Source: Pecten maximus
Taxonomy: Eukaryota
Length of the DNA stretch: 64,000 nt
NCBI RefSeq assembly: GCF_902652985.1
Contig: NC_047017.1
Location: forward strand, 11,160,001-11,224,000
Reading direction: 5' to 3'
Position numbers and translations under genes: made by a program. The stretch's first letter is position 1; each line of letters begins with the position of its first letter. Shown here piece after piece: positions 42,310 through 59,455 of this stretch. The notes beneath the pieces are model-generated. The model worked only from the letters and a program-made list of their open reading frames with translations. It was not told the DNA's origin and did not search any database.

Positions 42310-43277
42310 GAGAGATACCAAATATTAGTCGAATAATCATTAGTAAAACAATTCATGTATAACTAAGCATCAGTTTGGAAGAATGGGAATTCTTTAAATT
42401 GGAAATAAACTGTCGTCTCCGAATAACTATCATCTTTCTAACGAATACAACTTATCAGACCCGACGTCATCCCTCACTTCACATACATCTTCACGTGGCG
42501 CTGAATTCCAGACCTTCCCCATAAGTTACTGTTGTTTAAGTATTCAGATAATTCAAGTTGAGTGATTTTTGTCTTGTCTGCCGCAAAACGTCTCCGAGTT
42601 ATTTTCAAATGACCGCGCGTCCTCGAAACTCCACGTATTACGATATACCCGGCCTGGAAGAAAGCTTGCGACCGTAACCCCTGAAGTACCGAGGACGCAG
42701 GGGAGTTCACTGCTTTTTTTGTGTGATTATTAAACAACAAAAACAATCATTTTCAATTTGGTTGATATTGATCGTTGTCAATATCAACCAAACTCTATTG
42801 TAAATAGAGCGCATAAGCAGACAACTCATAATACTATGTTACGTTTACTAGACAAATCATCCCAAGTTTATGGCCTAGGAATTCCAAAAACAGGGGATGT
42901 GGCATGCCGGAAAACTGCACTTTTAGTTAGGTGTTCAGCCTAGTTTCTCAGAACTGTCCTAACAGTCTGGAACAGTTGTTATATGGACATCATATAACCC
43001 GCTAAATAGTAAAGTGAATTTTAGGACTTCTCGGTCTTACTCCGTTTATAGTCATACTGAAACAAGTGGTTTGATGTATCAAGAATTTTCTATTCTCACT
43101 TCTCAGAAGAGGAATGTTTTGGGGGTAAAGCTCGATTAAAGTTACTTTAACTAGAAAATGTTTTTTTAAGATATAAATGCCCCCGCTGCCACTTGACACC
43201 CCAAAACTTCGGCAGTTCCTGAGACTAGCTAGTAGTACATTAGAGCGGAACTGGACTCAAGGATGTTCCATTTAGTC

Positions 43278-43390
43278 CACAGGGGCTTGGCACGATTTTC
43301 CAAATGATAGTCCATATATATATGTATATACTATATACATACATGTATATATATGGACTATCATTTGGAAAATCGTGCCAAGCCCCTGTG
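43278..43390. mobile_element. 113-bp hairpin element with 8-bp TSD
   Basis: ~44-bp perfect arms CACAGGGGCTTGGCACGATTTTCCAAATGATAGTCCATATATAT; TA-rich palindromic loop; ATTTAGTC on both sides. Confidence 0.92.
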
Positions 43391-45282
43391 ATTTAGTCCT
43401 ACTATTCTCCGACAAAATAGGACCGTGTACCCAAGGACTGGTCTCATTTGGTTAGTTTATATCGACGAGGTAGCATTCTAAAGTAAACAAGACAAACGGC
43501 TTTTGCAAAATGGACAAAATCGGTGAGGGTGAAAGAGTCGGCCATTGCCATGGCTGCCATTCACAACCGCCTTATTTTCATTCATCTATTTCCAAAACTG
43601 AAAACAGCTATTTCAGGCACCCTTACTCTTACCCTAACATGCAGTGGATGGCTTTCTGAACAGCTAAGAAAAGGAGTTTTATAAAAGTGGAAATGAGGCT
43701 CTTAACCAAAATTCAAATCCTTCATTATGAGGCTCACAACTTATCAATCAACCCTTGTAATTATAATAGCTTACAATAATTTTCAGAAGTGTGACCATTG
43801 AGCTTTAACCTTGATCGATGACCTCAAAAATCTAATCCAGTGTAGGGCTTGGTGTAACTATTAGGGCTTGGTGTAACTATCTGTTTAAAGAATCTTTTGA
43901 ATACTGTGAAGATTAACCAAAGGTCAATATATAGGCCACTAAAGGTCATGGGTCAATTTCAATCAGAGCGACATCTTTTGTTTGCATAAATCTTCTAACA
44001 ATGTTATGATTCATCGTTTGAGGAAATGTTGCTAATTATCTCTCATCATAATCAGACACTCCCAAATTTATCTGTACCCACCTTGACCAAAGTTTAAATC
44101 TCAATAACTGAGTAATTAAAATTTAACTTCTGGTCAAGGTGGAATCAAGTAAAGCTGGTCCTGTTTGTTAACACAACTGATATCCTTCCGATCTAGGAAT
44201 CTGTTAACAGGTTTATTGAATTAAATTGATCAGTTAGAAAACATCAGCTAACTGACATAAAATCATGACTCTAAGTTTTATAGTTCTGTAAAAGAAGTCA
44301 TCTAAACTGACAGACAGATATCATGCTATGTATGAATTCATGATGAACTTCATGCTGGGAATGTTCGAAACTGATGATTTATTCAGTAAACTTCTTGATA
44401 TCCCAGATTACTACTGATGTGATCTCATTTTATCTGAAATGAACATCATAGCACAATGGTGATTTGTTAAAATTATACAACTACTATAACAAGAATGTAT
44501 CATTTATTTCAATATCATAATACTCATGATTGATGACATTTTTTATTTGAAAGTTCTGGACAGCTGCCAAGAAAATGACTAAACTTGAATGGTACCACAC
44601 CCAGAAATCCTGTCAGCTTCATAAAGTACACTGTGTCCACTTTCCAAATATATTTGAGATGATTAGATATCTTCACACTTAAGTATGAAATGTGTATTAT
44701 ATTGTCTCTACACACAACATGAATTGATATTAATAGTGCTTTCAATATTATGAAAGCAAATAAATTAAAAAAAATTAAAAGTGTCATGGCAAAAGCTGAA
44801 CACCATAATTTTGAGAAATTTTCATTGTCTTAAATACACAGATCTTATCTCCAGATATTTCCAGCCTCTCCAACACCAGACAAAACAGTGATTTATTTCA
44901 GTCATAACATGGCAGGTGTCAGTTTCAGGATGTCCGTTACAATGTCGTTGATTTCAGTTTCTGTCTGACAGACTAGATCCTGATAACATGAAGTATACAA
45001 CACCTGCCTCACAAGGCCAGTCTGTCTCAGTGGCCCTGCTGCATGTACAAACACATTTGTATCAAATTACACACTTTTCCAGGTATGCATGAAGACACTC
45101 ACCAATTACCTGCATTTTTGGGGTATTCGTTTCTATATTCTATAAAGATGTAGTGCTTTTATTTCAATATTACTTGGAAAAAAACTTCACACAATGTAGA
45201 CATCATCATGAAAGTTTATACGAAGGACTGGAATTTCTCCCCACCTGCATGTTCAGAATATTTAGTTATCAACGCCTGTGTG

Positions 45283-45558
45283 CTCACACCTGTATGTATA
45301 TTCACACCTGTATGTTCACACCTGTATGTTCATACCTGTATGTATGTTCACACCTGTATGTTTGTTCACACCTGCATGTTCACACCTGTATGTTTGTTCA
45401 CACCTGTATGTTCACACCTGTATGTTTGTTCACACCTGTATGTTCACACCTGTATGTTTGTTCACACCTGTATGTTCACACCTGTATGTTTGTTCACATC
45501 CGTATGTTCACACCTGTATGTTCACACCTGTATGTTCACACCTATATGTTAACACCTG
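45283..45558. repeat. 14/18-bp repeat (GTTCACACCTGTAT[GTTT]) at the start of the MED6 3' UTR
   Basis: Begins ~5 nt past the MED6 stop; explains ORFs 45153/45208/45278. Confidence 0.92.
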
Positions 45559-45684: not shown

Positions 45685-46213
45685 CTGTAAATATAAAAAA
45701 AATCATCTTGAGGTACCGCATTAGAGAGGTTTATCTGACAAACATGATATTGTCTACAGGGTCCAGATTAGAGAGGTTTATCTGACAAATTTGATATTAA
45801 CTACATGTCCAGATAAGAGAGGTTAATCTGACAAACTTGATATTAACTACAGGGTCCAGATTAGAGAGGTTCAACTTATACATACATTAGATTTATCTAA
45901 GTTATATGACATTAATGAAAGGTGTCAGATAAGAAAGATGTTTTAATGTATCTGTTTATCTGATTATAAGTATCACCTTATGAAACCTAAGGTATATATC
46001 TGATATAGCGACTACAAGTCAGTGAGAATGATTAAAGTTAACTCTATTTTACAAACAGAAACAAACTGATGAGACTTCACAATACATGTTGTTCATGACG
46101 TTACATCAGACATATCAATCCCCATACAGACCACCACGTTATGAAGATGATCTGTTTATAATTTTCTATTGTACAGGTTATCAAACACAGTAAATGGTGT
46201 GATCTGGTGAAGA

Positions 46214-48186: not shown

Positions 48187-51006
48187 CATCTATCTCCACA
48201 GCTGGGGGTATCCCCTGGCCTAGTGACATCTATCTCTACAGCTGGGGGTATCCCCCGGTACAGTCCTAGTGACACCTATCTCTACAGCTGGGGGTATCCC
48301 CTGACCTAGTGACACCTATCTCCACAGCTGGGGGTATCCCCTGGACTAGTGACACCTATCTCCACAGCTGGGGGTATCCCCTGGACTAGTGACACCTATC
48401 TCCACAGCTGGGGGTATCCCCCGGTACAGGCCTAGTGACACCTATCTCCACAGCTGGGGGTATCCCCCGGTACAGGCCTAGTGACACCTATCTCCACAGC
48501 AGGGGGTATCCCCCGGTAGTGGCCTAGTGACACCTATCTCCACAGCTGGGGGTATCCCCTGGTATGGGCCTAGTGACACCTATCTCTACAGCTGGGGGTA
48601 TCCTCTGGTAGTGGCCTAGTGACACCTATCTCTACAGCTGGGGGTATCCCCCGGTAGTGGCCTAGTGACACCTATCTCCACAGCTGGGGGTATCCCCCGG
48701 TAGTGGCCTAGTGACACCTATCTCTACAGCTGGGGGTATCCCCTGGTACAGGCCTAGTGACACCTATCTCTACAGCTGGGGGTATCCTCTGGTAGTGGCC
48801 TAGTGACACCTATCTCTACAGCTGGGGGAATCCTCTGGTAGTGGCCTAGTGACACCTATCTCCACAGCTGGGGGTATCCCCTGGTACAGGCCTAGTGACA
48901 CCTATCTCCACAGCTGGGGGTATCCCCCGTTAGTTGCCTAGTGACACCTATCTCCACAGCTGGGGGTATCCCCCGGTACAGGCCTAGTGACACCTATCTC
49001 TACAGCTGGGGGTATCCCCCGGTAGTGGCCTAGTGACACCTATCTCCACAGCTGGGGGTATCCCCGGTAGTGGCCTAGTGACACCTATCTCTACAGCTGG
49101 GGGCATCCTCTGGTAGTGGCCTAGTGACACCTATCTCTACAGCTGGGGTATCCCCCGGTACAGGCCTAGTGACACCTATCTCCACAGCTGGGGGTATCCC
49201 CCGGTAGTGGCCTAGTGACACCTATCTCCACAGCTGGGGTATCCCCTGGCCTAGTGACACCTATCTCTACAGCTGGGGGTATCCCCTGGCCTAGTGACAC
49301 CTATCTCCATAGCTGGGGGTATCCCCTGGCCTAGTGACACCTATCTCCATAGCTGGGGGTATCCCCTGGCCTAGTGACACCTATCTCCACAGCTGGGGGT
49401 ATCCCCTGGCCTAGTGACACCTATCTCCATAGCTGGGGGTATCCCCTGGCCTAGTGACACCTATCTCCACAGCTGGGGGTATCCCCCGGTAGTGGCCTAG
49501 TGACACCTATCTCCACAGCTGGGGTATCCCCCGGTAGTGGCCTAGTGACACCTATCTCCACAGCTGGGGGTATCCCCTGGCCTAGTGACACCTATCTCCA
49601 CAGCTGGGGGTATCCCCTGGCCTAGTGACACCTATCTCCACAGCTGGGGTATCCCCCGGTAGTGGCCTAGTGACACCTATCTCCACAGCTGGGGGTATCC
49701 CCCGGTAGTGGCCTAGTGACACCTATCTCCACAGCTGGGGTATCCCCCGGTAGTGGCCTAGTGACACCTATCTCCACAGCTGGGGGTATCCCCCAGTAGT
49801 GGCCTAGTGACACCTATCTCTACAGCTGGGGGTATCCCCCGGTAGTGGCCTAGTGACACCTATCTCCACAGCTGGGGGTATCCCCTGGCCTAGTGACACC
49901 TATCTCCACAGCTGGGGGTATCCCCCGGTAGAGGTCTAGTGACACCTATCTCCACAGCTGGGGGTATCCCCTGGCCTAGTGACACCTATCTCCACAGCTG
50001 GGGGTATCCCCTGGCCTAGTGACACCTATCTCTACAGCTAGGGGTATCCCCCGGTAGTGGCCTAGTGATACCTATCCCTACAGCTGGGGGTATCTCCTGG
50101 CCTAGTGACACCTATCTCCACAGCTGGGGGTATCCCCTGGCCTAGTGACACTTATCTCCACAGCTGGGGGTATCCCCTGGCCTAGTGACACCTATCTCCA
50201 CAGCTGGGGGCATCCTCTGGTAGTGGCCTAGTGACACCTATCTCCACAGCGGGGGTATCCCCCGTTAGTGGCCTAGTGATACCTATCTCTACAGTTGGGG
50301 GTATCCCCTGGCCTAGTGACACCTATCTCCACAGCTGGGGTATCCCCCAGTAGTGGCCTAGTGACACCTATCTCTACAGCTGGGGGTATCCCCCGTTAGT
50401 GGCCTAGTGATACCTATCTCTACAGTTGGGGGTATCTCCTGGCCTAGTGACACCTATCTCCACAGCTGGGTGTATCCCCTGGCCTAGTGACACCTATCTC
50501 CACAGCTGGGGGTATCCCTCGGTAGTTGCCTAGTGACACCTATCTCCACAGCTGGGGTATCCCCTGGTAGTGGCCTAGTGACACCTATCTCCACAGCTGG
50601 GGGTATCCCCCGGTAGTTGCCTAGTGACACCTATCTCCACAGCTGGGGGTATCCCCCGGTAGTTGCCTAATGACACCTGTCTCCACAGCTGGGGGTATCC
50701 CCTGGCCTAGTGACACCTATCTCCACAGCTGGGGGTATTCCCCGGTAGTGGCCTAGTGACACCTATCTCCACAGCTGGGGGTATCCCCTGGCCTAGTGAC
50801 ACCTATCTCCACAGCTGGGGGTATTCCCCGGTAGTGGCCTAGTGACACCTATCTCCACAGCTGGGGGTATCCCCTGGCCTAGTGACACCTATCTCCACAG
50901 CTGGGGGTATCCCCGGTAGAGGCCTAGTGACACCTATCTCCACAGCTGGGGGTATCCCCCGGTAGTTGCCTAGTGACACCTATCTCCACAGCTGGGGGTA
51001 TCCCCC
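48187..51006. repeat. 40/47-bp minisatellite (GACACCTATCTCCACAGCTGGGGGTATCCCC[CGGTAG]TGGCCTAGT)n in MED6 intron 7
   Basis: About 60+ copies with two interspersed length variants. Confidence 0.97.
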
Positions 51007-51149
51007 AATAGTGGCTTGGTGAGAACTTGTCTACTTTGTATGTCCAAAACACAAGTGATTCTGCACACATCATATCAAACAATTTTACATATCATAATAT
51101 TATATTATACACTTTGTACATGTATAAGTTTACATTAGTTCCTCTAAGT

Positions 51150-51712
51150 CACATAAATACCTCTAACTACAGGTAACCACATAGATACTTCTAACTACAG
51201 GTAACCACATAAATACTTCTAACTATAGGTAACCACATAAATACCTCTAACTACAGGTAACCACATAGATACATCTAACTACAGGTAACCACATAGATAC
51301 CTCTAACTACAGGTAACCACATAAATACCTCTAACTACAGGTAACCACATAGATACATCTAACTACAGGTAACCACATAGATACTTCTAACTACAGGTAA
51401 CCACATAGATACCTCTAACTACAGGTAACCACATAAATACTTCTAACTACAGGTAACCACATAAATACAGGTAACCACATAAATACATCTAACTACAAGT
51501 AACCATATAAATACCTCTAACTACAGTTAACCATATACAAATGTAAATACCTCTAACTACAGTTAACCACATAAATACCTCTAACTACAGGTAACCACAT
51601 AAATACTTCTAACTACAGGTAACCACATAAATACCTCTAACTACAGGTAACCACATAAATACTTCTAACTACAGGTAACCACATAAATACCTCTAACTAC
51701 AGGTAACCACAT
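51150..51712. repeat. 28-bp repeat (ACATAAATACCTCTAACTACAGGTAACC)n
   Basis: About 20 copies. Confidence 0.94.
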
Positions 51713-52247
51713 ATACTGCTATAAGTAAAATGTCCTTTCTAGAAAGTTTTTTTTAAACTATGAAACTAGATATAGCACAAGACAGGTAGAGTTATCTCCC
51801 TTGCAGGTTACAATAAGTGTGTGCCACATCTAGTTGAGTGTAACAGAATGCTCGTGTAACAGAATGCTCATATATTTTCTAAGTACTAGTATTTCCACTT
51901 CGTGGAATAAAATTACAAAAAATCTTTTTGAACATAGAATTAAGAATTAAGTCCTGTAGGCATATCAATAATCTACAGACTACAGCTTCTGACCTTCCAA
52001 ATAAAATTGGTCCATTCTAAGCAGTTGTATACATGTGTAGCAACACACTAGCAAGTAAAATCCATTACCGTGGTAGTCATCCCCTCTCATCTCTAGTCGG
52101 TGGCGATAATCTGGAGATCTCACCTTTGACCTCTGTGGACTGGGTTGGGGATATAGATGACTCTGTAATGATGGGAACCTCACCTTTGACCTCTGTGGGC
52201 TAGGTTTGGGGTATGAATGATTTTGTACAATGATGGAAATATCTCAC

Positions 52248-52391
52248 CTTTGACCTCTGTGGGCTGCGTGGGGGGTATGAACTTAGGAGGGAATTTTTTA
52301 GACAACTCTCCAAGTAACAAGTCCACTCTCTGTCGCTGGAACATGGAGCTTGGCTCTTCTTTCTTCTTCTTTTCCTTTGAATCTTTTTTAT
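52248..52391 (-). CDS. MED6: MED6 exon 7
   Basis: atatcacag|AT ... AAA G|gtgaga; KKKKEEPSSMFQRQRVDLLLGELSKKFPPKF. Confidence 0.95.
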
Positions 52392-52848
52392 CTGTGATAT
52401 AAAAATTTAGATATCTATGATGCAAGGGAGATGACCACAAAAAATATATTCAGCTTTTAAAAATCTCAAGTTAGATTTTTAATTCAACAAAACTGACCTC
52501 CATGTACCAATCTAAGGATACTACAGATAGAATTTCAGGAACTCCTCATGTATATGTTCTAGTCTGGAAGTCCATGTATACCTCCATATACAGACTGTAA
52601 GTGTATACAGTAGGTTAGTGTATATCACTAGATGCTGTATACAAATGTGACAATATACCATTACTACATTGTACAAACTGTATTTATCCTGTAATGAAGC
52701 CCGAGGGGCCAACACAAAGTAGGAGATATTATAAAATGTATATATTTAGGCGCATACTAATACTAATTTTTGCCTATGAATGAATTTAAATAGTTTTAGT
52801 GCAACCACAGTGCTTGCTGCAGAAAACAATATTCAGAAATTGTAATCT

Positions 52849-54476
52849 CTTCTGATAAATACTTGTACAGTACAGACTTACCTGATAAATACTTGTACAG
52901 TACAGACTTACCTGAACTCTCCTGATAAATATGTGTACAGTACAGACTTACCTGATAAATATGTGTACAGTATAGACTTACCTGAAGTCTCCTGATAAAT
53001 ACTTGTACAGTACAGACTTACCTGAACTCTTCTGATAAATACTTGTACAGTACAGACTTACCTGATAAATACTTGTACAGTACAGACTTATCTGATAAAT
53101 ACTTGTACAGTACAGACTTACCTGATAAATACTTGTACGGTACAGACTTACCTGATAAATACTTGTACAGTACAGACTTACCTGATAAATACTTGTACAG
53201 TACAGACTTACCTGATAAATACTTGTACAGTACAGACTTACCTGAACTCTCCTGATAAATATGTGTACAGTACAGACTTACCTGATAAATATGTGTACAG
53301 TATAGACTTACCTGAAGTCTCCTGATAAATACTTGTACAGTACAGACTTACCTGAACTCTTCTGATAAATACTTGTACAGTAAAGACTTACCTGATAAAT
53401 ACTTGTACAGTACAGACTTACCTGATAAATACTTGTATGGTACAGATTTACCTGAACTCTCCTGATAAATACTTGTACAGTACAGACTTACCTGATAAAT
53501 ACTTGTACAGTACAGACTTATCTGATAAATACTTGTACAGTACAGACTTACCTGATAAAAACTTGTACAGTACAGACTTACCTGAACTCTCCTGATAAAT
53601 ACTTGTACAGTACAGACTTACCTGATAAATATGTGTACAGTATAGACTTACCTGATAAATACTTGTACAGTACAGACTTATCTGATAATTACCTGTACAG
53701 TACAGACTTACCTGATAAATACTTGTACAGTACAGACTTACCTGAACTCTCCAGATAAATACTTGTACAGTACAGACTTACCTGAACTCTCCTGATAAAT
53801 ACTTGTACAGTACAGACTTACCTGAACTCTCCAGATAAATACTTGTACAGTACAGACTTACCTGAACTCTCCAGATAAATACTTGTACAGTACAGACTTA
53901 CCTGAACTCTCCTGATAAATACTTGTACAGTACAGACTTACCTGAAATCTCCTGATAAATACTTGTACAGTACAGACTTACCTGAACTCTCCAGATAAAT
54001 ACTTGTACAGTACAGACTTACCTGAACTCTCCTGATAAATACTTGTACAGTACAGACTTACCTGAAATCTCCTGATAAATACTTGTACAGTACAGACTTA
54101 CCTGAACTCTCCAGATAAATACTTGTACAGTACAGACTTACCTGAACTCTCCAGATAAATACGTGTACAGTACAGACTTACCTGAACTCTCCAGATAAAT
54201 ACGTGTACAGTACAGACTTACCTGAACTCTCCAGATAAATACGTGTACAGTACAGACTTACCTGAACTCTCCAGATAAATACTTGTACAGTACAGACTTA
54301 CCTGAACTCTCCAGATAAATACGTGTACAGTACAGACTTACCTGAACTCTCCTGATAAATACTTGTACAGTACAGACTTACCTGAACTCTCCTGATAAAT
54401 ACTTGTACAGTACAGACTTACCTGAACTCTCCTGATAAATACCTGTACAGTACAGACTTACCTGAACTCTCCTGAT
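52849..54476. repeat. 30/40-bp array built from the MED6 exon-6 3' end plus donor site
   Basis: Minus-strand unit [GAGAGTTCAG]GTAAGTCTGTACTGTACAAGTATTTATCAG, ~45 copies including the true donor. Confidence 0.96.
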
Positions 54477-54530
54477 CCTTGAACTCCCACCAATAACCTT
54501 TACTGGGGTGATACTTTGAGAAGGACTGGG
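54462..54530 (-). CDS. MED6: MED6 exon 6
   Basis: tatctacag|CC ... TCA G|gtaagt; AQSFSKYHPSKGYWWEFKDQESS. Confidence 0.95.
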
Positions 54531-55509
54531 CTGTAGATAAAAATTATTTGTGGTCATTTTTAACATTTGATTCCAACACAAAGGAATTTGATCAAGCACT
54601 AGTTATTCTTATTCCAAAGATCATGTCCATACTGTATAGCCATTTATTTTTGTGGGTAAATATATTCAAAATTTTCATTAAAAACAAAAGAATCAAATTT
54701 TAACAATTTCAAAGTTTGTGATCTGGTGATAACAGGATATCTTATTTTCGCAAATATTGCCCACACTGTCAATGATGACAGAAATAGTGGAAATATCACC
54801 CCCGTGAAAAAAACTAGCTATATGATATGTTCCTAGAACCATGATGGTTAATTATGAAATATCCTTGTAAAATAAATGTAACTTGTTGACACAGTACTGC
54901 ACAGTAGAAAAGTAAAATTATAAACAATGAAAATGGAATTCTGCTTAGATCTCCTATTCGTTGTGAAAAATGTTAAACGTCAGGGGTTAAACTAGGCCTA
55001 GTTTACCATCCATTAATGGTATAAGCGGTTTTTCCTTTAGTCCAAAGCAAGAAAAAAAAATCCTGAACCATAGACAATTCCTCAAAGTAGGAAAATGCAA
55101 ATGATAATATCTTACAGGTCACTTTGATTTGAGAACAGGATATTATATTTAGCATGAGAATGATTTCATGAACAGAGATTTACTGGATTTTGGGGTAGTA
55201 AAATATTCCACATTTTCAATTACATTTGTATCAAATTTGATTTTGACTACCTGAGTATCTCAATTTCAAATGATTGAAAAAAATCACATCATCAATTCAG
55301 ACGCGAACTTCAAGACATTTCATATTTACCTTTATTCATTTTTCCATAAAAATGGACCTTTGATTACCTGGCTACGTGTAAACTTTTTCAAATTAAAGTT
55401 TAACATTAATATGACCTCTGTAAGTGATCATAAATTTCATCTGGCATGCATTAAGAAAATTTCCCAAAATTTGCAATACTGAACCAAATTAAAGTGTGTA
55501 TTATCTTAC

Positions 55510-55549
55510 CTTCATCAAATGCTGATTTCAAGTTAGACAAGGTATTTAA
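55510..55549 (-). CDS. MED6: MED6 exon 5
   Basis: ttctttttcag|TTA ... GAA G|gtaaga; LNTLSNLKSAFDE. Confidence 0.93.
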
Positions 55550-55789
55550 CTGAAAAAGAAAAGTGAATACTGTTAATTAGGACTTATTTGATTAGACTGA
55601 AAAGAGAAAAGTACCCACCAAGCGCTGTGAAAAATTGGTCGAGAAAACAATATGGCAGACAAAATTCTGTCAACAGAAAGACAAGACAGACATTTACCCT
55701 TTAACCTCTCAGCCCTCGTTGTTGACAATATACCATGAAAACACAGATGTTTGTAAGTATTTTCTTTAAATACCCCCGGTACTATTAGA

Positions 55790-56542
55790 TTGTACCTTTT
55801 TGTATACATGTATACACCATAATTACACCTTAATCTGTAATGGCCTATAGATAGTGACCATGGTAACTGACCAGTCTGGAGTTGTGTACCTTTTTGTATA
55901 CATGTATATACCATAATTACACCTTAATCTGTAATGGCCTATAGATAGTGACCATGGTAACTGACCAGTCTGGAGTTGTGTACCTTTTTGTATACATGTA
56001 TACACCATAATTACACCTTAATCTGTAATGGCCTATAGATAGTGACCATGGTAACTGACCAGTCTGGAGTTGTGTACCTTTTTGTATACATGTATACACC
56101 ATAATTACACCTTAATCTGTAATGGCCTATAGATAGTGACCATGGTAACTGACCAGTCTGGAGTTGTGTACCTTTTTGTATACATGTATACACCATAATT
56201 ACACCTTAATCTGTAATGGCCTATAGATAGTGACCATGGTAACTGACCAGTCTGGAGTTGTGTACCTTTTTGTATACATGTATACACCATAATTACACCT
56301 TAATCTGTAATGGCCTATAGATAGTGACCATGGTAACTGACCAGTCTGGAGTTGTGTACCTTTTTGTATACATGTATACACCATAATTACACCTTAATCT
56401 GTAATGGCCTATAGATAGTGACCATGGTAACTGACCAGTCTGGAGTTGTGTACCTTTTTGTATACATGTATACACCATAATTACACCTTAATCTGTAATG
56501 GCCTATAGATAGTGACCATGGTAACTGACCAGTCTGGAGTTG
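55790..56542. repeat. 94-bp array built from the MED6 exon-4 3' end plus donor site (8 copies)
   Basis: CAACTCCAGACTG|GTCAGT recurs at 56530, 56436 ... 55872; copies are nearly identical. Confidence 0.96.
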
Positions 56543-56612
56543 ATGACTGAGGCGAGGTCCGGAGCTTGGTACACCACTCCAGCGATGATGTAGTAGTCCG
56601 CCAATGGCACCA
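56530..56612 (-). CDS. MED6: MED6 exon 4
   Basis: atattacag|TG ... CTG|gtcagt; [28 protein letters not shown]. Confidence 0.95.
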
Positions 56613-57126: not shown

Positions 57127-57218
57127 CATGATTTGGACCATTTCTTTCCTGTTTTCTAACGACGTACAAAATTGGTTCTTGTGTATGCAATAATATATAT
57201 TCCACGCCAACCATGTTA
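57127..57218 (-). CDS. MED6: MED6 exon 3
   Basis: tcttatttcag|T ... CAT G|gtttgt; [31 protein letters not shown]. Confidence 0.94.
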
Positions 57219-57529: not shown

Positions 57530-57698
57530 TTTAATTGATCAAGGCTTAATCTCTGCATTTTGATGATTTCATTGTTGCAGGTGTGGTCGTAAAAAGGGTT
57601 GCTCCTCTCGCTGAAGTAGTCCATCACATTAGAGGTGTTCAGCAGTGGGATGAATGTGCTGTCATGCCAGCTAATGCCAAGAGCACCGGCATTCAAAT
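57530..57698 (-). CDS. MED6: MED6 exon 2
   Basis: aattttacag|AT ... TTA AA|gtaagt; [42 protein letters not shown]. Confidence 0.96.
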
Positions 57699-59445: not shown

Positions 59446-59455
59446 CTTTGTCCAT
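59446..59455 (-). CDS. MED6: MED6 exon 1 coding part (ATG GAC AAA G), best candidate
   Basis: ataATGG context, donor AAG|gtaata, phase 1 joins exon 2 ([14 protein letters not shown]); lies just downstream of a promoter-like motif cluster. Total CDS 729 nt / 242 aa. Confidence 0.6.

Follow-up and report, generated by a model that had tools for sequence, protein, structure and literature searches.

In lancelets, the 'mirage' minisatellites of Adh3, the globin genes BflGb6 and BflGb9, troponin C and PGBD5 are tandem repeats that span exon-intron boundaries of both types; in the accessible parts of the published accounts their length is described as unstable, splicing as intact and their origin as unclear (PMC3087553, PMC3902484). 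Intron 7 of human F7 carries a 37-bp VNTR with 5-9 sites, and the portion of the report consulted describes mutagenesis in which the upstream-most donor was chosen and downstream donors functioned once the first was disabled (Borensztajn et al. 2006, PMC1557585). A 31-bp VNTR lies at the exon 13-intron 13 boundary of human CBS and, according to the part of the account available, is linked to lower enzyme activity (PMC1395315). No genome-wide rate of arrays at donors versus acceptors and no donor-proximal zone was found in the accessible parts of the literature searched, which included PMC10078293, PMC13196383 and PMC8096271, with subscription papers and supplements largely outside its scope.

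Three boundary arrays in MED6

The window analysed here is a 64,000-nt stretch of the Pecten maximus genome (contig NC_047017.1) that contains MED6 on its minus strand. A profile search matched exons 2, 3 and 4 to Pfam family PF04934, and the eight coding exons, with GT-AG at every intron, give an uninterrupted ORF of 242 aa (Table 1).

Table 1. MED6 coding exons and the arrays at their ends, in window coordinates (a slash marks the exon-intron junction).
Feature	Position	Strand	Remarks
MED6 coding exon 1	59446..59455	-	10 nt; predicted start; ATG and phase-1 GT donor suit exon 2
MED6 exon 2	57530..57698	-	PF04934 match
MED6 exon 3	57127..57218	-	PF04934 match
MED6 exon 4	56530..56612	-	true donor CTG/GTCAGT; PF04934 match; RNA contigs of X6 and X8 join true end to exon 5
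MED6 exon 5	55510..55549	-	X6 and X8 show a 979-nt joint with exon 6
MED6 exon 6	54462..54530	-	true donor CAG/GTAAGT; five RNA(-like) runs show its junction with exon 7
MED6 exon 7	52248..52391	-	true donor AAG/GTGAGA; 52248 joined to exon 8 in X9, X11 and X15
MED6 exon 8, coding part ending at stop codon	45563..45684	-	loose RNA-contig ends match exon-8 start
Array A	55791..56542	-	8 units of 94 bp, each with 13 nt of exon and 81 nt of intron; donor repeated identically 7 more times
Array B	52852..54476	-	45 units: 18 of 40 bp in a 5' block, followed by a mixture of 30 and 40 bp
Array C	52112..52281	-	2.8 units of 60-64 bp with about 80% likeness; further donors at 52184 and 52124

The initial annotation had described three MED6 donors amplified together with their exon ends, and arrays A, B and C do run from exons 4, 6 and 7 into the introns that follow. 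A recount returned the same numbers of extra donors, 7 at exon 4 in the 94-bp unit and 44 at exon 6 in the 30/40-bp units, and the two reported at exon 7 are present. In all three arrays the tandem unit consists of the exon end, the splice site and the adjoining intron. The annotated range of 13-30 exonic nt per unit holds at the lower bound and fails at the upper, the arrays beginning 13, 15 and 34 nt within exons 4, 6 and 7, respectively.

Array A has one mismatch over all 8 units and no clear direct repeat at its ends, and is young and probably variable in copy number. In array B the donor positions number 45 (1 true and 44 copies) and read CAG/GTAAGT at 41, CAG/ATAAGT at 3 and CAG/GTAAAT at 1, so that 40 of the 44 copies are perfect; its 30-bp unit is without the 10 nt that lie between two TCAG words, a 150-nt stretch of it occurs again with one mismatch, and it ends in a 9-of-10 direct repeat of the exon sequence at its start. 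Array C is old. The units of the three arrays are unrelated (pairwise scores equalled in 116, 358 and 268 of 1000 shuffles) and their divergence extends from the single mismatch of A to the approximately 80% likeness of C, which bears out the annotation's view of independent events of different ages.

A cryptic coding exon within the 94-bp unit was excluded by eye, with a stop at the fourth codon. A dispersed satellite carried by a transposon does not fit the units, whose sequence is that of MED6 exons and introns; in the genome sample described below, a match to another sampled segment was seen for only 1 of the 38 arrays that span donors.

Repeats make up 31% of the window and 47% of the MED6 gene span. 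A 14/18-bp minisatellite (45275-45558, minus strand) begins 4-5 nt past the stop codon of MED6, within what is presumably its 3' UTR, and a 47-bp array of 3.3 copies (45720-45871, minus strand) stops about 35 nt short of the acceptor of exon 8, close to the branch-point zone, and does not span this acceptor. Large minisatellites with 46/37-bp and 28-bp units (48190-51022 and 51150-51713) occupy about half of intron 7, away from splice sites. The window also holds a MITE-like long inverted repeat with arms of about 45 nt and an AT-rich centre (43276-43390), and tandem units of 155 bp and 324 bp (24161-25643 and 26107-27011), whose periods recur at many sampled loci and thus mark dispersed repeat families, not local duplications. 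A long exon at 2950-4242 (plus strand) presumably belongs to a WD-repeat (WDR20-like) gene, and an exon at about 22640-22950 (minus strand) to what we take to be a Rho-family GTPase gene.

The arrays in independent DNA samples

Two DNA runs, X4 and X5, come from different samples and studies. On array B the summed contig depth was 1764 in X4 and 2457 in X5 against about 25-31 in the flank, or about 60-100 times the flank. Array A gave a 94-nt record at depth 145 against 29 in the flank in X5 (about 5 times) and 49-79 against 29 in X4 (2-3 times); the window has 8 copies, and summed contig depth does not equal copy number. Array C was assembled through in X4 at single depth. An assembly artefact is ruled out by the raised depth on A and B in both runs and by the contiguity of C in X4. 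The arrays are therefore real, and A, with its unequal depth, probably varies in length. X4 differs from the window by two synonymous changes at the end of exon 7 (52267 and 52270); its state at 52267 is shared by both downstream copies of array C, and is either the ancestral state or a product of gene conversion.

Donor choice in MED6 RNA

For MED6, four studies with five RNA or guessed-RNA runs (X6, X8, X9, X11 and X15) supplied contigs of 717-791 nt. Those of X6 and X8 join exons 4 (at its true end), 5, 6 and 7 at the first donors, and those of X9, X11 and X15 join exons 6, 7 and 8 in the same way. No splice form using a downstream donor was present in the contigs of the five runs, in which rare forms are lost and could be missed, and RNA pieces located in the arrays were only of low depth and unspliced. 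The statement that the spliceosome ignores the copies is therefore true of the main mRNA, and MED6 itself seems unaffected by its arrays.

Products were computed for use of the extra donors. All 7 at exon 4 and the 5 computed at exon 6 would place a stop at least 140 nt ahead of the last junction, and 52124 at exon 7 would place one 56 nt before the junction. Splicing from 52184 would yield a protein of 248 aa whose stop codon lies in the last exon, and no contig spliced there occurs in any of the three runs examined; the absence of this form is weak evidence that donor choice is made at splicing and not only by decay.

Donors, acceptors and intron background in a genome sample

The annotation had proposed a comparison of array edges at donors, acceptors and random intron positions. 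Seven Pfam searches of the 918-Mb genome gave 497 exon matches outside MED6, of which 456 entered the sample, and 201 exons were added through tblastn among paralogues. Hits that were uncovered or on unplaced contigs were removed, as were 11 helicase hits that were transposon-like or lacked introns, leaving 627 homology-anchored exons in 222 segments (1.6 Mb) from seven conserved gene families. Exon ends were our own calls, not annotation, made from a codon model and splice matrices with repeats ignored; neighbouring pairs were phase-compatible in 269 of 345 cases, and in six cases where the call had fallen on a later copy of the donor it was reset to the first. Arrays were those reported by TRF with a period of at least 10, and they occupy 20.7% of the sample.

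Donors were enriched over both acceptors and introns. An array spans the donor in 38 of 565 cases and the acceptor in 12 of 560 (Fisher p=2.3e-4), the acceptor count being 14 of 562 before the exclusion of two that lie inside arrays; in the strict subset the figures are 28/430 and 9/429. Under the intron null, 2.9% and 2.8% of positions fall within the first or last unit of an array, respectively (2.0% without dispersed families, in a first, smaller sample). The donor rate is 2.3 times the null (segment bootstrap 1.6-3.1) and the acceptor rate 0.76 times (0.34-1.24), the acceptor-spanning arrays having the mirror layout at background rate. Matched by segment, 17.1 spanned donors were expected against the 38 observed (p=2.6e-6). 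By tertile of array density, 2/191, 15/190 and 21/184 donors were spanned against nulls of 0.9, 3.0 and 5.2%, with the lowest tertile marginal. The excess persists under three other TRF settings (1.6-3.0-fold) and on both genome strands (17/281 and 21/284), which rules out a strand bias of TRF as its source. One kinase exon in the sample (C12:28894309) has arrays on both its acceptor and its donor, and two sampled genes bear arrays at two donors.

MED6 has three of seven donors and none of its acceptors spanned by an array. For the donors P=0.0008 if the intron background applies, 0.009 with the donor rate of the whole sample and 0.037 with the 11% found for donors in array-rich regions; this last value puts MED6, itself in a repeat-rich region, in the upper tail, and many similar genes are expected. 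The importance that had been attached to a core Mediator gene is not upheld, as nothing here is special to Mediator.

A donor-centred zone

Array starts are concentrated on both sides of the donor. Their density is 1.3-1.7 per 1000 nt from -50 to +50 and 0.52-0.72 deeper in; 10-nt bins hold 5-11 starts within this interval and 0-7 (mostly 4 or fewer) beyond it, and array ends at acceptors number 0-7 per bin throughout. For a zone of 50 nt to either side, the bins having been partly picked on the same data, the ratio to background is 2.56 (2.0-3.3) at donors and 1.08 (0.71-1.46) at acceptors. It rises to 4.0 (2.7-5.8) for donor arrays of at least 10 copies, short arrays showing an approximately 2-fold excess (1.97, 1.16-2.95, for fewer than 3 copies). 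GC content was rejected as the cause, since the excess stands against a GC-matched expectation: local arrays start 36 times on the exon side of donors and 35 times on the intron side, with 14.0 and 12.4 expected, and the acceptor counts are 12 against 14.0 (exon side) and 18 against 12.7 (intron side, p=0.096). In some cuts the intron side of acceptors is mildly raised, 1.3-1.7-fold.

Forty-two arrays begin inside the intron, 0-50 nt from the donor, and do not copy the exon end; they are as enriched as those that copy the donor. That they are aged donor-spanning arrays is not supported, as only 5 of the 42 reached across the donor on lenient extension, with 6.4 expected. Arrays filling short ancestral introns were also rejected: in 46 of 47 cases the array ended at least 106 nt before the acceptor called next. 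The bias is thus tied to a zone around the donor and not to the splice signal, which supports only in part the mutational bias at 5' splice sites that the annotation had offered.

Further cuts were made. A motif-only, annotation-free replicate on 439 arrays away from called exons gave strong donor words in sense and antisense at 23/16 and 13/9 (p=0.34 and 0.52), in the same direction as the donor excess and not significant. Exact duplications of 8-30 nt showed no excess near donors (1 vs 2, at very low counts), and in phase-compatible introns 56 arrays lay nearer the donor and 39 nearer the acceptor (p=0.10). A difference in GC skew, as a sign of R-loops, was unsupportive (p=0.73), CpG on the exon side was lower at array-bearing donors (1.2-1.5 vs 1.8 per 60 nt), and no convincing G-skew or CpG signature was found at them; their donor score was slightly higher (p=0.024). 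Copies keep GT in 91% on average (37 arrays, 461 copies), with no extra divergence at GT that would indicate selection eroding copied donors. Copy number is within a tenth of a unit of a whole number in 18 of 30 donor-zone arrays and 70 of 142 other regular arrays, consistent with duplication of local unique sequence.

Origin and tolerance of the arrays

MED6 carries three independent boundary minisatellites. These, and the excess at donors, probably come from more births or more growth of short tandem duplications in a donor-centred zone of about 100 nt in this genome; the counts are of standing arrays, which blend birth, growth, loss and selection. Local unique sequence would first be duplicated, sometimes between short direct repeats such as those at the ends of array B, and ordinary minisatellite turnover may then follow. 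Tolerance probably comes from an upstream-first choice of donor, which mutagenesis showed for F7 and which the MED6 RNA contigs match; nonsense-mediated decay is predicted to serve as a second safeguard. In keeping with such a choice, copies keep GT without extra decay. We tentatively extend this to a more general statement, that minisatellites of this animal are by preference born and expanded within about 100 nt around 5' splice sites, in a zone oriented by transcription, whether or not the donor is copied; donor recognition would then leave a mutational footprint in DNA. Our best guess at the cause of the zone, and a doubtful one, is that DNA is damaged or slips in a transcription-coupled manner at the place where the donor is engaged by polymerase and U1, suggested because the bias follows gene orientation.

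Tolerance can lift donors to background at most, so the excess needs another cause, and survivor bias by itself, which the annotation had given as its second reading, cannot raise the rate above that of introns. The true exon is the upstream-most copy as it had stated, but any tandem duplication across a donor gives that layout, which is therefore no evidence of survivorship. Arrays do occupy a fifth of gene-region DNA (31% of the window), MED6 alone reaches only P=0.037 at the array-rich donor rate and the motif-only replicate is not significant, yet survival predicts background or less and donors exceed it, 2.3-fold overall and in all three density tertiles (the lowest only marginally), so that survivor bias or chance is a very improbable explanation. 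It is hardly credible that the extra donors are retained to tune MED6 output, as U1 decoys or by unproductive splicing. The 40 perfect donors of array B, a divergence of 0.05-0.07 at -2 to +2 across arrays (among the lowest positions) and the premature stop that downstream use in A or B would produce agree with tuning, but low divergence is expected of young, homogenised units and of an alignment anchored on its centre, no downstream form appears in the RNA contigs, donor-free arrays are equally enriched and the depth of array A is unequal between samples. Most likely the MED6 arrays are functionless.

An excess centred on the exon, produced by chromatin or methylation on both flanks and mostly pruned by selection at acceptors because an upstream acceptor copy would capture splicing, is rather unlikely. 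Harm by upstream acceptors is a reasonable supposition, and the raised intron side of acceptors (1.74-fold for long arrays), their low exon side (0.84) and the scarcity of two-copy acceptor-spanning arrays (ratio 0.33, n=2) would fit; such pruning would nevertheless have to remove about half to two thirds of arrays and land on background, even for intronic arrays that copy no acceptor, and donors with arrays are poorer, not richer, in CpG on their exon side. Longer persistence or further growth of arrays next to donors, where erasing deletions would hit the exon or the donor, accords with the largest excess being in long arrays (4-fold vs 2-fold). Equal shelter would be expected by the branch point and acceptor, yet between 40 and 90 nt there the number of array ends does not exceed background (15 in five 10-nt bins), and arrays of fewer than 3 copies are enriched at donors too, which makes persistence quite improbable. 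With a donor-centred zone as the preferred reading, the orientation-dependent excess makes the question of array origin testable, and a mutational cause would tie splicing to the birth of tandem repeats and to one route by which introns are proposed to be gained. Such arrays are present at about 7% of the donors sampled, and the genome therefore offers many natural tests of upstream-first donor choice.

Comparison with known systems

As far as the accessible parts of the sources extend, the MED6 arrays resemble the lancelet mirages in having units of tens of bases and in keeping normal splicing. The mirage accounts are case reports from another animal group, without a donor, acceptor or background rate or a donor-proximal zone; if the donor-zone reading is true, mirages would be its visible by-product across animals. 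Human CBS likewise has a VNTR on an exon-intron boundary, and an association with lower activity is reported for CBS only. Each unit of the CBS VNTR carries a donor. The likeness to F7 includes a first unit that contains the exon-intron junction, silent identical donors downstream and use of the upstream-most donor, again from the parts of that report consulted; F7 concerns one intron and was tested by mutagenesis, whereas MED6 has up to 45 sites and three introns, and its donor use was read from RNA contigs. The structure is thus already known from the mirages and the F7 VNTR, and the measured donor-centred zone is what is new.
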